A stretch of DNA of 64,000 bases, taken from sequence record ON528746, one strand, 5' to 3'. Below the pieces are notes generated by a model. It was not told the origin of the DNA. It saw only the letters and a program-made list of their open reading frames with translations, and did not search any database. Position numbers and translations under genes: made by a program. Position 1 is the first letter of the stretch. Each line of letters opens with the position of its first letter. Origin of the DNA: Shigella phage ESh36. Below are positions 5,137 through 35,259 of this stretch, piece after piece.

Positions 5137-6819
5137 TTAAACCATTACAGTAAATCGACCAACTTTCTTCATTTGAAGATGCTGACCATATGCTTGCGGG
5201 TCGTGGTCTCTATGTGAAATAACAAAAACATTAGTATTTTTTAAACTATCTAAAATAGTTGAAATAGCTTTTACACCTTCAACATCAGTTGCTGAATCAA
5301 AAACTTCATCGAGAATTAGTGTGTTTATTTTAACACCTGAAACTTTTTCAGCAATATCACGCCAAGTAAATAGAAGAGCAATATCAATTCGTGCTTTTTC
5401 GCCTTGACTGAATGAAGCATAACTAAAATCTTCACGACCACGGGATTTAATTGTCTCATTAAATTCTTCATCTAATGTAAACACATAATCCGCTTCCATT
5501 ATTTTAAGATAATGGTTAATCTGCTTATTAAATAATGGAATGTACTTTTTAATAATAGCACCTTTAATACCAGAATCTTTGAGCATATCAGTCAAAATTC
5601 CTCTGTGGTATTTTTCCATTACTAAATTAGTTTTTGTCTTAACAATTTTATCAAGTTCTTCTTGAAGCAGTGCTATTTCATCAGCATGGTCAATAAACTC
5701 GGATGATGCTTTTTCTATAGCTGCTTTAACTTTTTTAGCTTTATCTACAGTCGTGATTAGAGATTGCTTTTTATTGCGAATATCATTTGCCAACGTCTGT
5801 TGGGTTTTAATATTATCTCGGTATTCATCAACGAGAACTTTTAAATTATCACGATGTGTTGAAAGCTGTTCAAACGAATGCGTGCATTCAGAAACTTTAT
5901 CTTTAATTTTAGAAACAACTTTATCACCGGAACTTAATTGTGACAAACAGGTTGGACATAATCCACCTTCGTGATACATATTAATGACTTTATTATACGA
6001 GTCAATTTTTGATTTAATTAAAAATGCTTCTTGGCCGATTTTATTAAATGCATCAGTCGGGTCTTCATCCAAAACAATATTAACTAATCTTTCATTAGCT
6101 TCTTCTATTTCCGATTTTAGCGTTCTAGCTTCTTTTGCCAAATCATCATACATATTCTGTAGACGAGTAAGGTTATCACCAGTTAATTTTTTCTGGCGTT
6201 CAACGTTATCATTATATATTTTAATTTGTTGGATAATACTATCTTTTTTAACATCAAGCACTTGGTTTTGTGAATTTAATTCACGTATTAGTGCTTTATT
6301 AAGCTTATCCATTTCAGCTAATGTTCCTACCTCGAGCAGGTCTTCCACAAGCTTTCTTCGTGCAGGGGTCGACAAACCCATGAAAGGGGTATACCCTGCT
6401 GTACCAAGGACAACAATCTGCTTGAAACTGGCATATGACATTCCGATAAGCTGTTCAAATTCTGCTTGGAAATCTTTACTGCTGGCAGATTCATTAAGAC
6501 GTGTACCGTTAACGGTGATTTCGAAAACGTTTGGTTTTTGCCCTCTTTTGATATAGTACTTTTTCTCATCATATTCCATCCACAGTTCAACTAAAAGTTC
6601 TTTCTTATTTGTGCTGTTTATTAATTGACCTTTCTTTACATCACGAAATGGCTTGCCAAAAAGCCCAAATGTGATGGCTTCTAACATAGTAGACTTACCA
6701 CCACCATTTCGTCCAGTAATAAGAGTTTTTTGAACCTTATCTAGTTGAATGTCAATAGGATTTCCACCTACTGACATTATATTTTGATACCTAACTCGGT
6801 TTAGTTTAAAATTCTTCAC
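5137..6819 (-). CDS. 46: Recombination nuclease ATPase subunit gp46 (SbcC/Rad50-like)
   Basis: 560 aa; Walker A GRNGGGKST; long coiled-coil middle; matches T4 gp46. Confidence 0.9.
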   Translation of the reverse strand: MKNFKLNRVRYQNIMSVGGNPIDIQLDKVQKTLITGRNGGGKSTMLEAITFGLFGKPFRDVKKGQLINSTNKKELLVELWMEYDEKKYYIKRGQKPNVFEITVNGTRLNESASSKDFQAEFEQLIGMSYASFKQIVVLGTAGYTPFMGLSTPARRKLVEDLLEVGTLAEMDKLNKALIRELNSQNQVLDVKKDSIIQQIKIYNDNVERQKKLTGDNLTRLQNMYDDLAKEARTLKSEIEEANERLVNIVLDEDPTDAFNKIGQEAFLIKSKIDSYNKVINMYHEGGLCPTCLSQLSSGDKVVSKIKDKVSECTHSFEQLSTHRDNLKVLVDEYRDNIKTQQTLANDIRNKKQSLITTVDKAKKVKAAIEKASSEFIDHADEIALLQEELDKIVKTKTNLVMEKYHRGILTDMLKDSGIKGAIIKKYIPLFNKQINHYLKIMEADYVFTLDEEFNETIKSRGREDFSYASFSQGEKARIDIALLFTWRDIAEKVSGVKINTLILDEVFDSATDVEGVKAISTILDSLKNTNVFVISHRDHDPQAYGQHLQMKKVGRFTVMV

Positions 6820-7079
6820 AAAAGATTCCTTTTAATGTATCTTTTAGACCATTCTATCATATCATCATAATCTAAAAAGTATTCATCAAATTCAGCCATG
6901 CAAACAACACCTTGTGCTGATTTTGATGTGATATAAATTATTCCAACATATCTAGAATCTTCTTCGGTGTAATCAATATTTGCTATGAATTCATCGTTAA
7001 TGTCAAATGTCGAAAACTTCACAGTATGCATCCTTAATACAAGATACAGCCATATCTTGTAATGATTTAGGTGTGTCAT
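6816..7079 (-). CDS. Hypothetical protein (46.1 position); start uncertain
   Basis: 87 aa ORF overlapping the next ORF; an internal ATG at 7031 (MHTVKF...) may be the true start. Confidence 0.35.
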   Translation of the reverse strand: MTHLNHYKIWLYLVLRMHTVKFSTFDINDEFIANIDYTEEDSRYVGIIYITSKSAQGVVCMAEFDEYFLDYDDMIEWSKRYIKRNLL

Positions 7080-7266
7080 TATCTAAAATGTTGAAGTTAA
7101 AAGATACAGCCCAGTCAGTGCAGACCGTAACCTTTTTAATACAATTATCTTCAACCTCTAGCGGTTCAAACCAATATTCAATAATTTCTTTATGCCCAAT
7201 ATCATCTTTTACTTCGCATTCAAAATGCTGACTCATCATAACATTTTTAAATTCATCAAAAGTCAT
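7003..7266 (-). CDS. Hypothetical protein (46.2 position)
   Basis: 87 aa ORF, 4-nt overlap with the gene 47 stop. Confidence 0.4.
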   Translation of the reverse strand: MTFDEFKNVMMSQHFECEVKDDIGHKEIIEYWFEPLEVEDNCIKKVTVCTDWAVSFNFNILDNDTPKSLQDMAVSCIKDAYCEVFDI

Positions 7267-8282
7267 TGTGTTGCCTCTACATATAACTGATTTGCATATT
7301 GAATAAGTGCTTCGCGATCAGAATCAGTGATGTCTGGAATTGCATTAATGTATTCTTCCATCAATGTCTGAAGAGATTGAACTTCAACTTCTTCACTATC
7401 ATCTGACTCGACAGAGTTATCAATCTTTGACACAACTCGTAATGAATGCACAACTTTTTCTAGTTCAGATTCGAACTTCGTTAGATTTTTGTCTACTTCA
7501 GTTACTATAACACGTACTGATAGATTTGTAAAATCTTTATAGTCAATTTTTCCCTTAAATGGATATTGAATTCGACGATGCCAGGTAGTGTTGTTTGGAA
7601 TAAATTCCATTCGTTCTGTTTCTGTATCAAACATCCAGAACCCGCGAGGGTCATTCTCGTCACCTGCAGTTAGTGTCCATGGTGTCCCAATATATCTGAC
7701 ATTAGCAGCCTCAGAGATAGTATGGAAGTGACCAGACCACACCTCTTTATAAGTCTTAAGGAAATCAGGTTCAAGACCGTGAGATTTCATTCCTTTATAA
7801 AAATAAAATCCATTCAGTTCCCAGTGACCAACACAAAAAGAAGCAGATGAAGTTTTGATATGTTCAAGAATTTCACCAGTATTTTCTTCACACATCCAAG
7901 GAATTAAATCAATCAAACATCCGTCAAAATCTACTGTAGTAGGCTTATCATATACTTTAACATTAGGATATTTAGCCAAAAGCTCAGTAGAAGCATTTGG
8001 ATGCATTACATTTTTGTAGTGGAGATCGTGATTTCCTACAATAGTATGTAATGTGATTCCAGCGTCATCAAGCATTTGAACTATTTCACGGGCAAACTCC
8101 ATTGTTTTATGCGTGATCGCTTTTCGCACATCAAAAATATCACCATATTGAATCCATACCGTAATTCCATTTTTCTTAGAATATTCTATCGCTTGCTTAA
8201 TTCCATCAATTTGAATACCGCGAATCCACTCATCATCAGCTTTAACGCCTAAATGCCAATCACCCAAGTTTAGTATTTTCAT
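7263..8282 (-). CDS. 47: Recombination nuclease subunit gp47 (SbcD/Mre11-like)
   Basis: 339 aa; phosphoesterase motifs GDWHLG, GDIFD, GNHD; matches T4 gp47. Confidence 0.9.
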   Translation of the reverse strand: MKILNLGDWHLGVKADDEWIRGIQIDGIKQAIEYSKKNGITVWIQYGDIFDVRKAITHKTMEFAREIVQMLDDAGITLHTIVGNHDLHYKNVMHPNASTELLAKYPNVKVYDKPTTVDFDGCLIDLIPWMCEENTGEILEHIKTSSASFCVGHWELNGFYFYKGMKSHGLEPDFLKTYKEVWSGHFHTISEAANVRYIGTPWTLTAGDENDPRGFWMFDTETERMEFIPNNTTWHRRIQYPFKGKIDYKDFTNLSVRVIVTEVDKNLTKFESELEKVVHSLRVVSKIDNSVESDDSEEVEVQSLQTLMEEYINAIPDITDSDREALIQYANQLYVEATQ

Positions 8283-29974: not shown

Positions 29975-30361
29975 TTATTCGAGGGAAAGAAGATACTTAC
30001 TCTGGTAAAACATTCCAGTAATATCATCTATCGTGCTTTGGATGGCTGGAGGCATTTCTTTATAAATGCTGTTAGATTGGTCTAGTATGCGATCAATCAT
30101 TTTAATTGTGTCGGTAGGAAGTTTACTAGCATCTGGAATTGAAGGTGTGTATTTTCTACCAGAATACCCCAAATATTGCTCACCAAATTTATCAATCAAA
30201 TCTGGCAACTCGGAGAAAATAAAATCGTATGCTTTGTGTCTAGCATAACTTTTAGTTTCAAAATGCGCAGAATGAAAATAAGCTTGTGCAGCCATTAATA
30301 AACCTAAGTATTCATCTGCCTTTGAAGGTTTTCCACTTTGTGAAAAGTCGCTGAATTTCAT
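29975..30361 (-). CDS. Hypothetical protein (rI.-1 position)
   Basis: 128 aa ORF; 4-nt overlap with rI. Confidence 0.45.
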
Positions 30362-30651
30362 TCAGTCTCCAATTTAATGTTCATAATTCTAGCGTATGAT
30401 TGTGCCATCTCCGCGCCTCGCTCTATACATTCAAAATCGGAAGAGCACGGGTCATTTTTATAAGTCGTTCGCATAAAACTATAGAACTGTTCAGATGATT
30501 CTACGCTTTTATTTTCAAAAAGCATATAAACGTGTCTAATACCAGATTCCATAAATTTATCAAAATGAGGATCGACATTCGCTTCAATTGGTGGAGATAA
30601 AGCAAACGCTAATCCTAGCATGGCAAATAGTGCCGTTGCTTTTAAGGCCAT
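30358..30651 (-). CDS. rI: Lysis inhibition regulator RI
   Basis: 97 aa; MALKATALFAMLGL...ANVDPHFDKFMESGIRHVYMLFENKSVESSEQF... matches T4 RI (signal anchor). Confidence 0.88.
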   Translation of the reverse strand: MALKATALFAMLGLAFALSPPIEANVDPHFDKFMESGIRHVYMLFENKSVESSEQFYSFMRTTYKNDPCSSDFECIERGAEMAQSYARIMNIKLETE

Positions 30652-30663
30652 AAAGGCCTCCTA

Positions 30664-30876
30664 TCATTTTTGTCCTGTATTTACTTTATGCCGATGCACG
30701 GCCTTAACTTTATCAAGGTATTTTTCAAAATTTCGCAATCTAGTATAGTCTGCCGGAGATTGGTTGAGTGATACTTCTCGACGCAAAGCTGAAATGATAT
30801 TTCCAACTTCCCTACGAATTTCATCTAATTGAAGAACAGTAAGATTGCGAAGTTGCTTTTCAGTTAATTGTAGCAT
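30664..30876 (-). CDS. Hypothetical protein (rI.1 position)
   Basis: 70 aa ORF. Confidence 0.45.
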
Positions 30877-30918
30877 ATATACCCCTTTAGTTAGATAAAC
30901 CTATTTATAACTTTTGCA

Positions 30919-31500
30919 CTAACCGAGCTTTTTAGTTAATTCATTCCAATGTTTTCTACACAAAGAAACATAAATTTCATCACCAATACAGATTTGATTA
31001 CCTTCTTTAACTGGTGTTCCATCTTCCATTAATCGAGCTGTCATAATAGCTTTTTTACCACAATGACAAACTGCCTTTAGTTCAATAAGTTTATCTGCAA
31101 TCGCCAAAAGTTCTTTAGAACCTTCAAACAATTTTCCAGCGAAATCAGTCCTTAGCCCATAAGCCATAACAGGAACATTATATGTATCAACAATTCGACT
31201 TAATTGATGCACCTGTTCAGTTTTTAAAAACTGAGCTTCATCTACAAATACACAATGAATATCTTTTTGTGCTTCAGCCCATTTATAGAACTCAAAAATA
31301 TCCATATCATCCGTAATAATATTCGCTTCCTGCTTAATTCCAATGCGAGAAACGACTTCACAGACAGAATCGCGAGTATCAATAGCAGGCTTAAGAACTA
31401 ATACACTCATTCCGCGTTCTTTATAATTATGTGCAGCAGTCAAAAGAGAAGCAGATTTTCCAGCATTCATTGCTGCGTAAGTAAAAATTAAACTCGCCAT
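30919..31500 (-). CDS. tk: Thymidine kinase
   Basis: 193 aa; P-loop AAMNAGKSASLL; matches T4 Tk. Confidence 0.9.
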   Translation of the reverse strand: MASLIFTYAAMNAGKSASLLTAAHNYKERGMSVLVLKPAIDTRDSVCEVVSRIGIKQEANIITDDMDIFEFYKWAEAQKDIHCVFVDEAQFLKTEQVHQLSRIVDTYNVPVMAYGLRTDFAGKLFEGSKELLAIADKLIELKAVCHCGKKAIMTARLMEDGTPVKEGNQICIGDEIYVSLCRKHWNELTKKLG

Positions 31501-31509
31501 ATCACCTTC

Positions 31510-31695
31510 TTAAAGCATATTCACATAAGCTATTAATTCGTTTTCTTTCTTATCAAACCGATCAGCAAATTCTTCCTGCTGTTCAGGAGATAGCGGGCCG
31601 TATTCATCATAAAAGGTGTTTGCTTCTGTATGCTCATCTAGAAGTTCATGGATAAGCTCAAACAATTTATCTTTTTGTTCTTTACTCAGACTCAT
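31510..31695 (-). CDS. Hypothetical small acidic protein (tk.1 position)
   Basis: 61 aa ORF. Confidence 0.4.
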   Translation of the reverse strand: MSLSKEQKDKLFELIHELLDEHTEANTFYDEYGPLSPEQQEEFADRFDKKENELIAYVNML

Positions 31696-31861
31696 GTATT
31701 AATTTCCAGGAGTTTTAAAATAATTCGCTTTTGCTTAAATATTTCCATGGTTAAATGACCAGTATCTTTTTGACCGATTCCAATGGCAAAACCTTTATTG
31801 ACAGCGAGTTCAATTAAATTATCAAGCTCACGTAACACTTCATATTGTAACTCAAAACTAT

Positions 31862-32089
31862 TCATTTTGGTTTACCTTCTTTAACGAAATCAGGATAAGG
31901 ATAAAATCCTGAATAAAATCCTTCACCTTTATGATTGATGCATCCTTTATTAGAACAATAGCACCAATAATCGAAATCACAAGCCATTTCATCATTACAT
32001 AAAGCAAAAACAACCGGCCATTCACACTTTTCGCAGTGGGCATTTTTAAGAATACTTGTTTGGCTCATAACCATGTAACCTTTAAACAA
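31862..32089 (-). CDS. Cys-rich small protein (tk.2 position)
   Basis: 75 aa with 9 Cys (CEKCEW...CNDEMACDFDYWCYCSNKGC). Confidence 0.4.
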   Translation of the reverse strand: MFKGYMVMSQTSILKNAHCEKCEWPVVFALCNDEMACDFDYWCYCSNKGCINHKGEGFYSGFYPYPDFVKEGKPK

Positions 32090-32277
32090 TATTCTTCTAC
32101 GTGTTGTTTACGACCTTTCTTATCAATAAAGGTATATTCAACGAATGTTCCAATATAGTCTTTATCTACATCATGAGGACTATTAATTGGGCATTTAGTA
32201 CGGCAAATGCGTTCCCATTGACGAATAATTTCCACTTTGTTTTTAGGATCAAACGGATGCGGGTAATGTACTTTCAT
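32065..32277 (-). CDS. Hypothetical protein (tk.3 position)
   Basis: 70 aa ORF. Confidence 0.4.
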   Translation of the reverse strand: MKVHYPHPFDPKNKVEIIRQWERICRTKCPINSPHDVDKDYIGTFVEYTFIDKKGRKQHVEEYCLKVTWL

Positions 32278-32728
32278 AATCCACCACTATTAAATCAATA
32301 TCAGGAGTAAACATGTCGATTAATTTAGAAACCTTATCCCAATCGCCGCCAGCAATACCGCAACCTATGCGTGGAATGTAAATTACTGGTTTAAACAAAA
32401 GGGTTTCTGCCTGTAGATTTAATTCTATCATGCAGTTTACTAAAGCACCATAATCAAGATTAGGACCCGGTTCATATTGCGTATACAGGTTATAGCATAT
32501 ACCAAATCCTGTAGGATTATGTTTAAAAACAATAGACATATCGCCTAATTTATCACGAGAACCGTACTCGGTAGTGGTTTTATCTATTTCTAAAATTTTG
32601 GGATAGGCTCTTGCTAATTGACCTGCTACGCCAGAGCCCATTGTGTGGAAGCAATTGCACCCGTGCGCAATAATATTACCTTGAAGAAATAGGGCGACAA
32701 TATCGCCCTTGATATATTTTACAATCAT
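32249..32728 (-). CDS. Macro-domain-like protein (ADP-ribose binding/processing fold; tk.4 position)
   Basis: 159 aa; N-x2-N...GxGVAG segment (IAHGCNCFHTMGSGVAGQLARAYP) and later GCGIAGG, as in macro domains. Confidence 0.45.
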   Translation of the reverse strand: MIVKYIKGDIVALFLQGNIIAHGCNCFHTMGSGVAGQLARAYPKILEIDKTTTEYGSRDKLGDMSIVFKHNPTGFGICYNLYTQYEPGPNLDYGALVNCMIELNLQAETLLFKPVIYIPRIGCGIAGGDWDKVSKLIDMFTPDIDLIVVDYESTLPASV

Positions 32729-33072
32729 CTAGTACTCAATCCTCGATTATAAGAATCTACTAAACGGTCAACCATTGAATGACAAGCGGCTTTATCTTTC
32801 TCCTCCGCAACTGAACATTCTAAGGTATTCCACTTTTTAGCATATCGTTTTAACAATGTATCATTTTTGTATCTGCTTGATTTATCTCTTTCTCCGTCTT
32901 TATATGCATATATTAATTTCTGTGCAAATTCAGCTTGGCATGCTTTATTTTTCCCGCAATAATCCGCGGCAGTACGATTTACATACTCTCTAATTTCAGT
33001 ATATGATGTATCTGCTGATGCAGAAGCAGAAAATGAAATTAATCCTATACATAAAACCAAAATTTTAGTCAT
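32725..33072 (-). CDS. Secreted/periplasmic small protein at the vs position
   Basis: 115 aa; N-terminal signal peptide (MTKILVLCIGLISFSASASA); several Cys. Confidence 0.45.
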   Translation of the reverse strand: MTKILVLCIGLISFSASASADTSYTEIREYVNRTAADYCGKNKACQAEFAQKLIYAYKDGERDKSSRYKNDTLLKRYAKKWNTLECSVAEEKDKAACHSMVDRLVDSYNRGLSTR

Positions 33073-33610
33073 TTACTATTTCCAAAAGTTTATTATTTTT
33101 AAGGTAATTAGCCTTTTCTAGGACTTCAGAAGCATATTTAGAACCTGCTTTAACATTCCATCCCGAATTATAAGAGGATATTGCTTTTCTTATATCGCCC
33201 TTATGTATATTTAACCAATAAGAAAGTTCAATGTACGCCCAGGAAGCTGAATTGGACCGTTTATTCAACATTCTTTTTATTTCAGCATCGGTCATATTAT
33301 AACCAAGTTCCTTAACTCTTGCTCGCATAGTTGGCAAATAATTTTGGAACATTCCATAGGCATGATGCTTTGGTTTAGATTTTAAATTAACTCCGGCAGA
33401 GCTTTCTTGCCACAAAATAGCAGCCATTATATGACCCAATCCGCTCTTGTGGATATTTTTGTGTGTTTTATATTTTCCATCCTTAGAAAATTGTTCCCCG
33501 AATTGATATGCGTAACGCATGTTATCGAGTTGGACATTACTGAAAGTATGCTCGGAGCTATGCGCCATCATTGAAATGGCCAATAGACCAGCGAGTAGTG
33601 CTTTTCTCAT
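33065..33610 (-). CDS. Lytic transglycosylase-like protein with signal peptide (vs.1 position)
   Basis: 181 aa; signal peptide; SLT-type segment AAILWQESSAG...YGMFQ. Confidence 0.55.
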   Translation of the reverse strand: MRKALLAGLLAISMMAHSSEHTFSNVQLDNMRYAYQFGEQFSKDGKYKTHKNIHKSGLGHIMAAILWQESSAGVNLKSKPKHHAYGMFQNYLPTMRARVKELGYNMTDAEIKRMLNKRSNSASWAYIELSYWLNIHKGDIRKAISSYNSGWNVKAGSKYASEVLEKANYLKNNKLLEIVND

Positions 33611-33617
33611 GCTTACC

Positions 33618-34079
33618 TCATTGAGTTTTAATTACTGCTTTAGAAGCCTTTCCTGGTAAACGACGACTGTTGATAATTGCCATCCTGCATTGAAGCGACG
33701 GGTCTTTGAACTTCGCATTAGGTTTACAAACTGTAAATCCAAGCCAAAGATTTCCATCTGTAATTTCTAAACGTCCAGGACGGTATTCAACCCCATCAAT
33801 AAAATCCTCGTCAATGTCAGGACGCGGAGGCATACTCAGGAATTCATTAACTTCTAAAACATGGTCTTTTATTTTGTGGAATAATTCAAAAACATATGTC
33901 TCATCAATCTCCCGTTGAATTGCACGATCAAGAAGATGCTGAGAATATTTTAGATGAAACGATGAGACCCCTGCTGCTTTTGATGCCTCACGAATCTCAT
34001 TGTTAATTTGACGAAACTCCGACTCAAAGTGACGACGAAGCTTATTTCGACGGATAAAAACTTCTGTGTTGATAGTCAT
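33618..34079 (-). CDS. regB: Endoribonuclease RegB
   Basis: 153 aa; MTINTEVFIRRNKLRRHFESEFRQINNEIREASKAAGV... matches T4 RegB. Confidence 0.88.
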   Translation of the reverse strand: MTINTEVFIRRNKLRRHFESEFRQINNEIREASKAAGVSSFHLKYSQHLLDRAIQREIDETYVFELFHKIKDHVLEVNEFLSMPPRPDIDEDFIDGVEYRPGRLEITDGNLWLGFTVCKPNAKFKDPSLQCRMAIINSRRLPGKASKAVIKTQ

Positions 34080-34104
34080 GTTATTCTCCTCTTAACTGAT
34101 AGAA

Positions 34105-34138
34105 AAATTATACCACAGTCAAGAGGAAAAGTAAACAG
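34105..34138 (-). promoter_or_regulatory. T4-type early promoter (regB)
   Basis: GTTTAC-18 bp-TATAAT ~25 nt upstream of the regB ATG. Confidence 0.65.
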
Positions 34139-34417
34139 TTATTCTTTAAATCTAATCAATTTATTCATAGACTTTGAAACTTCTGCACGGACCTCATGCA
34201 GGTTTTTAAGCTGTTCAAGACGTTGCTCATAGTAAGCAATTTCATCTTCTTCAAGACAGTCCTGTGAATCTTCTTTAAGATAACGCGCATAGTCCTGGAA
34301 AGCTTTACGGACTACTTCTTGGAAGTCATCAAGACTTTGAATTTTCTTAGGAGCAACAGATACACGACGAGGGGCAGTATAATACTCATAACCAAACCCT
34401 GCGCTTAATTGAGCCAT
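34139..34417 (-). CDS. Hypothetical protein (vs.3 position)
   Basis: 92 aa from the ATG at 34417 ([13 protein letters not shown]...), overlapping the stop of the upstream gene. Confidence 0.4.
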
Positions 34418-34683
34418 TAATATTTTTCCTCTGGTTGGAACACAGCACGACAAGCCCACATACTGGCTTCTTTGAGTTTCGTTTTAGCAATAGTTAACTG
34501 ATCGAGGCTTTCAGCATAATTCTTCGCGAATTCACAGTCTTCACAATTATCTAGTGCTTCCCAAAATTCATCGTATAAAGCGTCAAAGATAAGTCCTAAA
34601 CGAACTTCAGCATCTTTGATAGCATTCACTTTACTGATTTTATCGTCAGTATGTGGCTTATAACCTTTAATATCTTCAATCAT
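34417..34683 (-). CDS. Candidate Acb2 (anti-CBASS cyclic-oligonucleotide sponge; vs.4 position)
   Basis: 88 aa from the ATG at 34683 with GAGGAAG SD; position equals T4 vs.4, which I recall as Acb2; sequence not independently verified. Confidence 0.4.
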
Positions 34684-34897
34684 ATTTGACTTCCTCACCA
34701 GTACATAAATCATATTCAACTAAACGAATAGGTTCATGAATGCCATATCCTTGAACAGAAATTTCTGTCGTAGGATAAATTCCATCAATATCACCCATGG
34801 TCCATGCTTCATTAAATTGCTGTTCGCCTGAATTACTAAACCACTCGGCGAAAGCATTTAACACATCTTTAGAACCTTCAATAATTATCTTTGCCAT
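34676..34897 (-). CDS. Hypothetical protein (vs.5 position)
   Basis: 73 aa ORF. Confidence 0.4.
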   Translation of the reverse strand: MAKIIIEGSKDVLNAFAEWFSNSGEQQFNEAWTMGDIDGIYPTTEISVQGYGIHEPIRLVEYDLCTGEEVKYD

Positions 34898-35259
34898 TAC
34901 AAGCTCTCAGTAAAGGTACGAGCGATAACGTCGCGCTGCTGTTCCGGAGTCAGAGAGTTAAAGCGAACTGCATAACCGGATACACGGATGGTCAGCTGCG
35001 GATATTTTTCCGGATGCTTAACTGCATCTTCCAGAGTTTCACGACGCAGAACGTTAACGTTCAGGTGCTGACCACCTTCAATTTTAACGGTAGGCTGTGA
35101 TTCAATTTCAATTTCACGGGCATGCAAACCGTAGAAAATTTCTGGGTCTACAAAAGAGTCCTCTTTAAAGGTTTTAGAAACAATAATTCGTGCTTGAATA
35201 CCATCTTCAAAATAAATAGTACCTTTATGTGTGCCTTCAAGAATTTGATATGCTTTCAT
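34897..35259 (-). CDS. Autonomous glycyl radical cofactor GrcA/YfiD homologue (vs.6 position)
   Basis: 120 aa; C-terminal ~60 aa (...[59 protein letters not shown]) matches E. coli GrcA as remembered; glycyl radical motif RVSGY. Confidence 0.8.

Follow-up and report, generated by a model that had tools for sequence, protein, structure and literature searches.

A divergent Tk.4/AdfM allele in a T4-like Shigella phage: a predicted Gln-type macrodomain and probable ADP-ribosyl-DNA hydrolase countering DarTG2

The DNA analyzed here (the window) is a stretch of 64,000 nucleotides from Shigella phage ESh36 (sequence record ON528746). It derives from a Tequatrovirus, that is a T4-like phage, and the 2.2 kb surrounding the gene under study are 98-99.8% identical to many Tequatrovirus genomes, with Shigella phage ESh16 as the best match. 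The minus strand carries at 32249..32728 an ATG-to-stop open reading frame (ORF) that encodes a protein of 159 amino acids with a single macro domain. A first-pass annotation had described an ORF of this length and with exactly these boundaries in the interval between tk and vs, and it was right on both counts: the ORF is real, and according to the ORF coordinates tk lies at 30919-31500 and vs at 32725-33072. The neighbours in the window are tk, tk.3, vs, vs.1 and regB. Because the genome is T4-like and the ORF sits between tk.3 and vs, a slot that it has in common with T4 tk.4, it was identified as tk.4. The T4 protein aligns with the window protein without gaps (90 of 155 residues identical, 58%; E=1e-70), and the window ORF also matches PHROG 335 (E=1.6e-71), a family labelled 'phosphatase'. 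Full-length homology and synteny place it in the T4 Tk.4/AdfM orthologous group. The feature is already known: it is the T4-family tk.4, annotated as 'phosphatase; contains A1pp phosphatase motif' in the T4 record and as 'macro domain protein' or 'Poa1p_like family protein with Macro domain' in other phage records, and recently named adfM.

The genes are tightly packed at this locus. The stop codon of vs and the start codon of tk.4 overlap in the tetranucleotide ATGA (32725..32728, minus strand), as the ORF coordinates and the sequence indicate and as is likewise the case in T4. This overlap suggests that vs and tk.4 are co-transcribed and translationally coupled. At the other end of the gene, the 3' end of tk.4 and the start of tk.3 overlap by 29 nt (32249..32277, minus strand), compared with only 4 nt in T4, and the window allele is four amino acids longer. 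The opposite strand overlaps the gene with short ORFs only, such as 32101-32310 (69 aa, GTG start), none of which has any support. A consensus scan picked out a GC-rich, terminator-like hairpin in codons 7-13 of tk.4 (32691..32709, minus strand), which forms an 8-bp stem in the MFE fold and is 100% conserved with T4 and Yersinia phage fPS-2. The fPS-2 interval that matches window positions 32680-32719 is annotated 'terminator', and the divergence from T4 begins just 3' of the hairpin. The hairpin folds with a z-score of -1.55, too weak for an RNA element to be claimed at this site. The scan for promoter and terminator consensus sequences gave no more than shuffled sequence would, with 9 promoter-like sites where 13.8 were expected, and a search of positions 30000-35000 against Rfam returned zero matches even at E<=1.

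Comparison with T4 revealed an uneven distribution of sequence identity. The window Tk.4 is 58% identical to its T4 counterpart, yet the flanking proteins are 93-100% identical, with 192 of 193 residues shared in Tk, 115 of 115 in Vs, 180 of 181 in Vs.1, 152 of 153 in RegB and 65 of 70 in Tk.3. Within Tk.4, identity falls from 42 of 50 in residues 1-50 (84%) to 25 of the following 50 and 23 of the last 55, which corresponds to 42-50% past residue 50. The phosphate-binding loop reads GAGIGKG in T4 and GCGIAGG in the window; both proteins have a one-domain architecture and agree at 16 of 16 family-invariant residues. The window-type allele is present in about 280 phage records (at least 90% DNA identity, full length), for example in phiD1, RB9, pSs-1 and FriedrichMiescher. 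Another group of about 258 records, including T4, T2, RB18 and wV7, matches approximately the first 150 nt of the gene only, at about 83%. The tk.1-tk.2 slot differs from T4 as well, the segment 31696-32063 having no T4 counterpart. With an identity of just 58%, and 42-50% past residue 50, functional equivalence of the window and T4 alleles is an extrapolation.

The assignment to the macro domain superfamily is based on both sequence and fold. Pfam Macro (PF01661) aligns with residues 22-136 over profile positions 2-117/118 and scores 33.1 bits (E=5.8e-8; gathering score 22 bits). In a phmmer search of the PDB sequences the significant matches were macrodomains and macrodomain-based designed proteins only; E-values were about 2e-10 for BT1257 (2afc/2fg1), 1.5e-9 for Poa1p (6lfu), 8.5e-8 for SCO6735 (5e3b), 4.8e-5 for DarG (5m3i) and about 0.01 for TARG1. 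When a 50-sequence family profile was used instead, macrodomains were again the only hits and the E-values improved to 1e-18 through 1e-11, with SCO6735 at 2.8e-15. An AlphaFold2 model computed from a 50-sequence alignment, from which the T4 sequence was left out, reached a mean pLDDT of 93.2 and a pTM of 0.88, and the last five residues (155-159) have a pLDDT below 50. The first ranks of a Foldseek search against the PDB were taken by TARG1, Poa1p, BT1257, DarG and SCO6735, each with a probability of 1.00 and a TM of 0.68-0.84, and 50 of the 50 matches listed are macrodomains or macrodomain-scaffold designs (TM 0.65-0.84). As judged from the model, window Tk.4 has the three-layer alpha/beta/alpha macro fold, and its 159 residues form one bare macro domain with no extra domain in Pfam or in AlphaFold2. 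The macro-domain likeness proposed in the first-pass annotation therefore stands far above chance, a macro-domain match and a related fold being found by Pfam, the structural model and Foldseek alike.

Both glycine-rich segments on which that proposal had been built are present, GxGVAG as GSGVAG (residues 31-36) and GCGIAGG unchanged (residues 122-128). The N-x2-N motif that had been read in front of the first segment is absent: in the stretch H22-G-C-N25-C the only Asn is N25, six positions ahead of G31, and N18 precedes N25 by seven residues. MacroD-type domains bear N-x2-N (NAAN) as their signature. Assignment to the MacroD/YmdB type was rejected on the absence of this motif and on a score of 16.7 bits, against a cut-off of 291, with the NCBIfam model of the YmdB-type O-acetyl-ADP-ribose deacetylase; by fold, YmdB occupied rank 42 in Foldseek. 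The conserved G8-D9, N25 and the loops G31-G36 and G122-G128 suggest that window Tk.4 binds ADP-ribose.

Active-site positions were deduced from an alignment with DarG, TARG1, BT1257 and PhiKZ gp104 (MAFFT, and hmmalign to the family profile), in which the numbering offset of the T. aquaticus DarG chain was checked against N22 and K80 as cited in PMC13309987. Alignment and family conservation delimit three elements, all on the minus strand. The first substrate-binding loop, H22-G36 (HGCNCFHTMGSGVAG; 32621..32665), contains H22, N25 and the first Gly-rich loop. The strand N80-L-Y-T-Q84 (32477..32491) places a Gln where DarG and TARG1 have the catalytic Lys, and the second Gly-rich or phosphate-binding loop extends from P119 to W130 (PRIGCGIAGGDW; 32339..32374). 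N25 aligns with N22 of T. aquaticus DarG, Q84 with K80 of DarG and K84 of TARG1, and A126 falls at the position of the catalytic D125 of TARG1. An exhaustive representative search retrieved 18,376 relatives at E<=1e-3, of which 1,191 reached E<=1e-30. Conservation was counted over 258 family representatives, whose median length of 156 aa indicates that the family consists mostly of stand-alone domains. Q84, D49 and Y82 are kept in 258 of 258, and near-invariance was seen for N80 (257), N25, G122 and G124 (256 each), C26 (255) and H22 (251); the position of K60 is occupied by Lys or Arg in 253. Neither D49 nor K60 has a counterpart in DarG, TARG1 or BT1257. With Gln84 at the Lys position, Asn25, H22 in the context H-x-x-N, the G122-x-G124 loop and both BT1257 and SCO6735 among the top sequence matches, the Tk.4 family is by its conserved residues of the SCO6735/BT1257 Gln type within the ALC1-like macrodomains and not of the DarG/TARG1 Lys type.

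Some information on function was sought in the surroundings of individual family members. A bacterial member (Pelagimonas P0096) has no DarT neighbour and lies in surroundings that look housekeeping; being one case, it carries little weight. In a protein of 472 aa (P0257), encoded on a probably viral contig whose genes are mostly unannotated, a Tk.4-type Macro occurs in one polypeptide with NADAR and DUF4326. Since NADAR serves DarG1 and AdfN as their domain for guanine-ADPr DNA hydrolysis (PMC11825919), a joint function of the fused domains in DNA de-ADP-ribosylation would fit this architecture. Another member (P0097) is located on a phage-like contig and adjoins Acb5 and nucleotide-metabolism genes, a setting that does not indicate the substrate. 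The isoelectric point does not discriminate DNA-acting macrodomains, with values of 5.05 for PhiKZ gp104, whose hydrolysis of ADPr on DNA is proven, and 5.03 for Tk.4, both equally acidic.

The biological context of tk.4 has been unveiled in T4 itself. T4 and T2 were known to keep their resistance to DarTG2 without adfN or adfA, and a further factor was predicted (PMC11825919). DarTG2 ADP-ribosylates thymidine in ssDNA, and when a T4 transposon library was analyzed on a DarTG2 host by HIDEN-SEQ, only tk.4 reached significance; T4 was sensitised to DarTG2 by a clean knockout of tk.4, and the gene was renamed adfM, for anti-DarT factor Macrodomain (bioRxiv 10.1101/2025.11.20.689424, a November 2025 preprint). 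Removal of ADP-ribose from DNA by T4 AdfM was inferred there solely from the structural similarity to M. tuberculosis DarG (bioRxiv 10.1101/2025.11.20.689424). The first-pass annotation had spoken of a regulatory or counter-defence enzyme, of which the counter-defence part agrees with the published T4 genetics, and no support was found for a regulatory one. Since tk.4 has long been catalogued as a macro/A1pp gene in T4 and its DarTG2 role was reported in 2025, the present analysis carries little weight as a discovery. Its modest additions are the Gln-type placement of T4-type AdfM and the dimorphism of tk.4 within Tequatrovirus, which should be heeded when T4 DarTG2 resistance is extended to therapeutic T4-like phages.

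An example of how a macrodomain of this type can act on DNA is provided by SCO6735, with which BT1257 has been grouped. Although SCO6735 lacks the catalytic residues of TARG1 and DarG, it surpasses both enzymes in the efficiency with which it releases thymidine-linked ADP-ribose from DNA, and it can rescue E. coli cells exposed to DarT (PMC9411070). Its activity is abolished by Q85A, nearly abolished by N27S, which affects a residue conserved in DarG homologues, and substantially reduced by G128E; the loss of activity in H24Y was ascribed by the authors to disrupted structure (PMC9411070). The mechanism proposed is water-mediated, with Gln85 holding the distal ribose in position (PMC9411070). 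By transitivity, His24, Asn27 and Gln85 of SCO6735 correspond to H22, N25 and Q84 of Tk.4, the match of N27 and N25 being supported by the identical H-x-x-N spacing as well, and direct alignment equates G126/G128 with G122/G124.

The window Tk.4 is probably a macrodomain hydrolase of the Gln type that acts on ADP-ribosylated DNA and counters DarTG2, a function extended here to an allele 58% identical to that of T4. The need for tk.4 in the face of DarTG2 is taken from the literature on the T4 allele and joined to the macro domain, orthology, synteny and conserved residues of the window protein, and hydrolysis of thymidine-linked ADP-ribose would follow by analogy with SCO6735 and PhiKZ gp104. 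The likely substrate is ADP-ribosylated DNA, rather than the small molecules put forward in the earlier annotation. As a stand-alone enzyme of about 18 kDa encoded in the early region, Tk.4 would bind the ADP-ribose put by host DarT2 on thymidine in single-stranded phage DNA and would then hydrolyse the ribose-thymine bond; replication could continue and the abortive defence by DarTG2 would be neutralised. H22, N25, Q84 and the G122-x-G124 loop would make up the active site. Given its Gln type, catalysis is expected to proceed via Gln84 rather than a Lys: Gln84, locked by Asn25, would position the distal ribose and a water molecule, with no nucleophilic or acid-base lysine taking part.

A different substrate comes into consideration at the N-terminal motif. 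The HGCNC of window Tk.4 resembles the HSCNC of Poa1p, the yeast ADP-ribose-1''-phosphate phosphatase (6lfq, 6lfr), and the wider segments read AHGCNC...GSGVA in Tk.4 and IHSCNC...GGGIA in Poa1p. This Poa1p-like motif accounts for the historical 'A1pp phosphatase' label. The substrate of Poa1p is a small-molecule by-product of tRNA splicing, and it is conceivable that Tk.4, like Poa1p, is a hydrolase of small-molecule ADP-ribose derivatives, either an Appr-1''-p phosphatase or an O-acetyl-ADP-ribose deacetylase, that acts on NAD-derived metabolites. The labels of T4 tk.4 and PHROG 335, the place of Poa1p among the best matches (phmmer E=1.5e-9; Foldseek E=4.4e-9) and the common H-x-C-N-C, a Poa1p H23A mutant structure having been deposited, all speak for such an enzyme. 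It is nevertheless very unlikely, as it would leave the DarTG2-specific fitness defect of T4 tk.4 mutants unexplained. Moreover, the likeness to Poa1p lies mainly in the N-terminal 80 residues and is weak past residue 80, and the invariant Q84, where Poa1p presumably carries a Ser, fits SCO6735 and BT1257. Small-molecule activities are common in vitro among macrodomains without being their physiological role.

The fold points in a further direction, towards human TARG1/OARD1 (4j5r, 4j5s). This enzyme is the best Foldseek match of Tk.4 (E=1.6e-9, TM 0.72-0.84) and has the His equivalent to H22, the G-x-G loop and the Trp (W130) in common with it. A TARG1-like fold would be compatible with a protein or RNA de-ADP-ribosylase that either tunes the marks set by the phage enzymes Alt, ModA and ModB or erases those of host ARTs, for example the mRNA marks of CmdT; in that case, protection from DarTG2 would be either a secondary activity or a property of the T4 allele alone. 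SCO6735, too, hydrolyses ADP-ribosylated proteins (PMC9411070), the mRNA ART system CmdTAC targets T-even phages (PMC11618068), and the divergence of the window allele from T4 leaves room for altered specificity. Against this stands the replacement of the TARG1 Lys84/Asp125 dyad, which deals with Glu/Asp esters, by Gln84 and Ala126 in Tk.4, where in addition Asn25 takes the place of a TARG1 Ser, and no genetic link between tk.4 and CmdTAC was found in the publications consulted. Arginine is the residue that Alt, ModA and ModB modify, and macrodomains are not known to act on the N-glycosidic bonds of Arg-ADPr; reversal of the Alt, ModA and ModB marks by Tk.4 received no support from the searches of sequence, fold and literature made here. 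A role on protein or RNA is distinctly unlikely.

The fast divergence of the allele between otherwise identical flanks is a pattern that could also arise from a protein-protein arms race. It would suit a non-catalytic Tk.4, an ADP-ribose reader or stoichiometric inhibitor that binds ADP-ribosylated DNA or DarT2 and protects without hydrolysis, all the more as SCO6735 is reported to neutralise DarT in part 'by interaction-inhibition in vitro' (PMC9411070) and DarG2 possesses a separate DarT-binding domain (PMC11825919). Such a mode of action is extremely improbable for a bare macro domain of 159 residues. ADP-ribosylated DNA that is merely bound would presumably still be unreplicable, and the invariance of the SCO6735-type catalytic residues over 258 divergent representatives speaks for selection acting on chemistry. 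Hydrolysis of small molecules, action on protein or RNA and non-catalytic binding are all less likely than hydrolysis of ADP-ribosylated DNA. That the two deeply diverged Tequatrovirus alleles of tk.4/adfM, the window type and the T4/T2 type, differ in function and mark a polymorphic arms-race locus is conceivable but unlikely. The alleles might then be tuned to different DarT2 variants by direct binding of the toxin, comparable to the in vitro inhibition by SCO6735, or alternatively might act on different ADP-ribosylated substrates such as other bases, RNA or protein.

Among the characterized macrodomains, SCO6735 of S. coelicolor (PDB 5e3b) shares about 25% identity with Tk.4. Its loop PRIGCGLAGGTW and the BT1257 loop PRIGCGLAGGKW are nearly identical to that of Tk.4, and both SCO6735 and Tk.4 stand alone, without an adjacent DarT gene. 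SCO6735 belongs to the housekeeping or DNA-damage-regulon genes of a bacterium, whereas tk.4 is a counter-defence gene of a phage. The two proteins also appear to differ in that the DNA-positioning Lys34 and Lys89 of SCO6735, together with its long, mobile basic loop, are not evident in Tk.4. The position equivalent to K34, at which SCO6735 was placed indirectly, is a Lys in BT1257 and DarG, appears to be S32 in Tk.4 and is an Ala in most family members, and no basic residue was seen in the Q84-N90 loop of Tk.4, where K89 of SCO6735 would fall. As far as the alignments tell, the apparent lack of conservation of these DNA-positioning lysines is the main structural caveat to an SCO6735-like action of Tk.4.

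The DarG macrodomains of T. aquaticus and M. tuberculosis (5m31, 5m3e, 5m3i) have a fold like that of Tk.4 (TM about 0.73) and the same Asn (N22, equivalent to N25). Membership of Tk.4 in the DarG antitoxins was considered and rejected, as the NCBIfam model NF048014 gave 27.8 bits, in the macro region only, against a cut-off of 250, and the PADLOC DarG model gave 27.7 bits. Tk.4 further differs from DarG by the Gln84 at the Lys80 position, invariant in 258 of 258 representatives, by the missing C-terminal DarT-binding domain and by its neighbours, which are vs and tk.3 and not darT. Mutation of K80 inactivates DarG (PMC8120803). PhiKZ gp104 was independently given the name AdfM as well (Cell Reports 2026; PMC13309987); it removes DarT2-installed ADP-ribose from a TNTC oligonucleotide in vitro, and its activity is reduced by N23A (PMC13309987). 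With the NCBIfam DarG model, gp104 scores 137.8 bits, compared with 27.8 for the window Tk.4 and 30.3 for T4 Tk.4. These scores, along with the Gln as opposed to the Lys type of active site, place T4-type AdfM and PhiKZ AdfM in different branches of the macrodomains. The two AdfM proteins would accordingly represent independent recruitments, probably with different chemistry, for a proposed job that Tk.4, DarG and PhiKZ gp104 have in common, the undoing of thymidine ADP-ribosylation by DarT2.

Compared at the sequence level, the interval between tk and vs (window positions 31500-32730, against 6345-7390 of the T4 sequence L001) is a plasticity island bounded by near-identical flanks. Within it, the macrodomain gene tk.4 (adfM; 32249-32728, minus strand) shares 58% identity with its T4 counterpart, and among Tequatrovirus records the window-type allele occurs in about 280 and the T4/T2-type allele in about 258. 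The ORF at 31510-31695 is identical to T4 tk.2 at only 33 of 61 positions. Two further minus-strand ORFs, of 57 aa (31692-31865) and 75 aa (31862-32089), match PHROG 3452 and PHROG 2306, respectively, both in the category of unknown function, and no counterpart of either was found at the tk-vs locus of T4. The 75-aa ORF carries a cysteine-rich sequence (CEKCEW...CDFDYWCYCSNKGC) and on this basis looks like a zinc-binding protein.

The divergence from T4 starts directly after a GC-rich 8-bp hairpin that is followed by a weak U-tract (32691-32709, minus strand, within 32680-32719) and occupies codons 7-13 of tk.4. The hairpin is 100% conserved with T4 and with the Yersinia phage fPS-2, in which a terminator is annotated over this region, and its folding signal is weak (z-score -1.55). 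Possible readings are an attenuator, a structure acting on the coupling of vs and tk.4, or a recombination boundary. At the other end of the gene, a minus-strand site within the 3' end of tk.4 and upstream of tk.3 (32288-32312) corresponds in position to a 'predicted early promoter' of the fPS-2 annotation; a sigma-70 consensus scan did not pick up this position. Outside the island, beyond vs, lies vs.1 (33065-33610, minus strand; 181 aa), which appears from its sequence to begin with a signal peptide and has weak PHROG matches to lytic tail proteins. It is annotated as an SLT-domain transglycosylase in one phage record and still as a 'hypothetical protein' in T4.

Relatives of Tk.4 also occur in fused form. 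A 472-aa protein encoded at 6001-7419 of contig L008, and also found on L009, combines a Tk.4-type macro domain with a NADAR domain and DUF4326, and a further relative, P0209, joins DUF4326 to a macro domain. The genes of the L008 contig are mostly without Pfam match, and the contig is probably viral. The 472-aa protein is in effect a fusion of AdfM with the NADAR-domain counter-defence protein AdfN, by which both thymidine- and guanine-linked ADP-ribose might be erased by one protein.

At two conserved positions the Tk.4 family differs from DarG, BT1257 and TARG1. D49 (numbering of the window Tk.4) is present in all 258 aligned family representatives, and position 60 is lysine or arginine in 253 of them. 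In contrast, DarG and BT1257 carry tyrosine at the equivalent of D49 and threonine or glutamine at that of K60, while TARG1 shows either a gap or leucine at the D49 equivalent, depending on the aligner.
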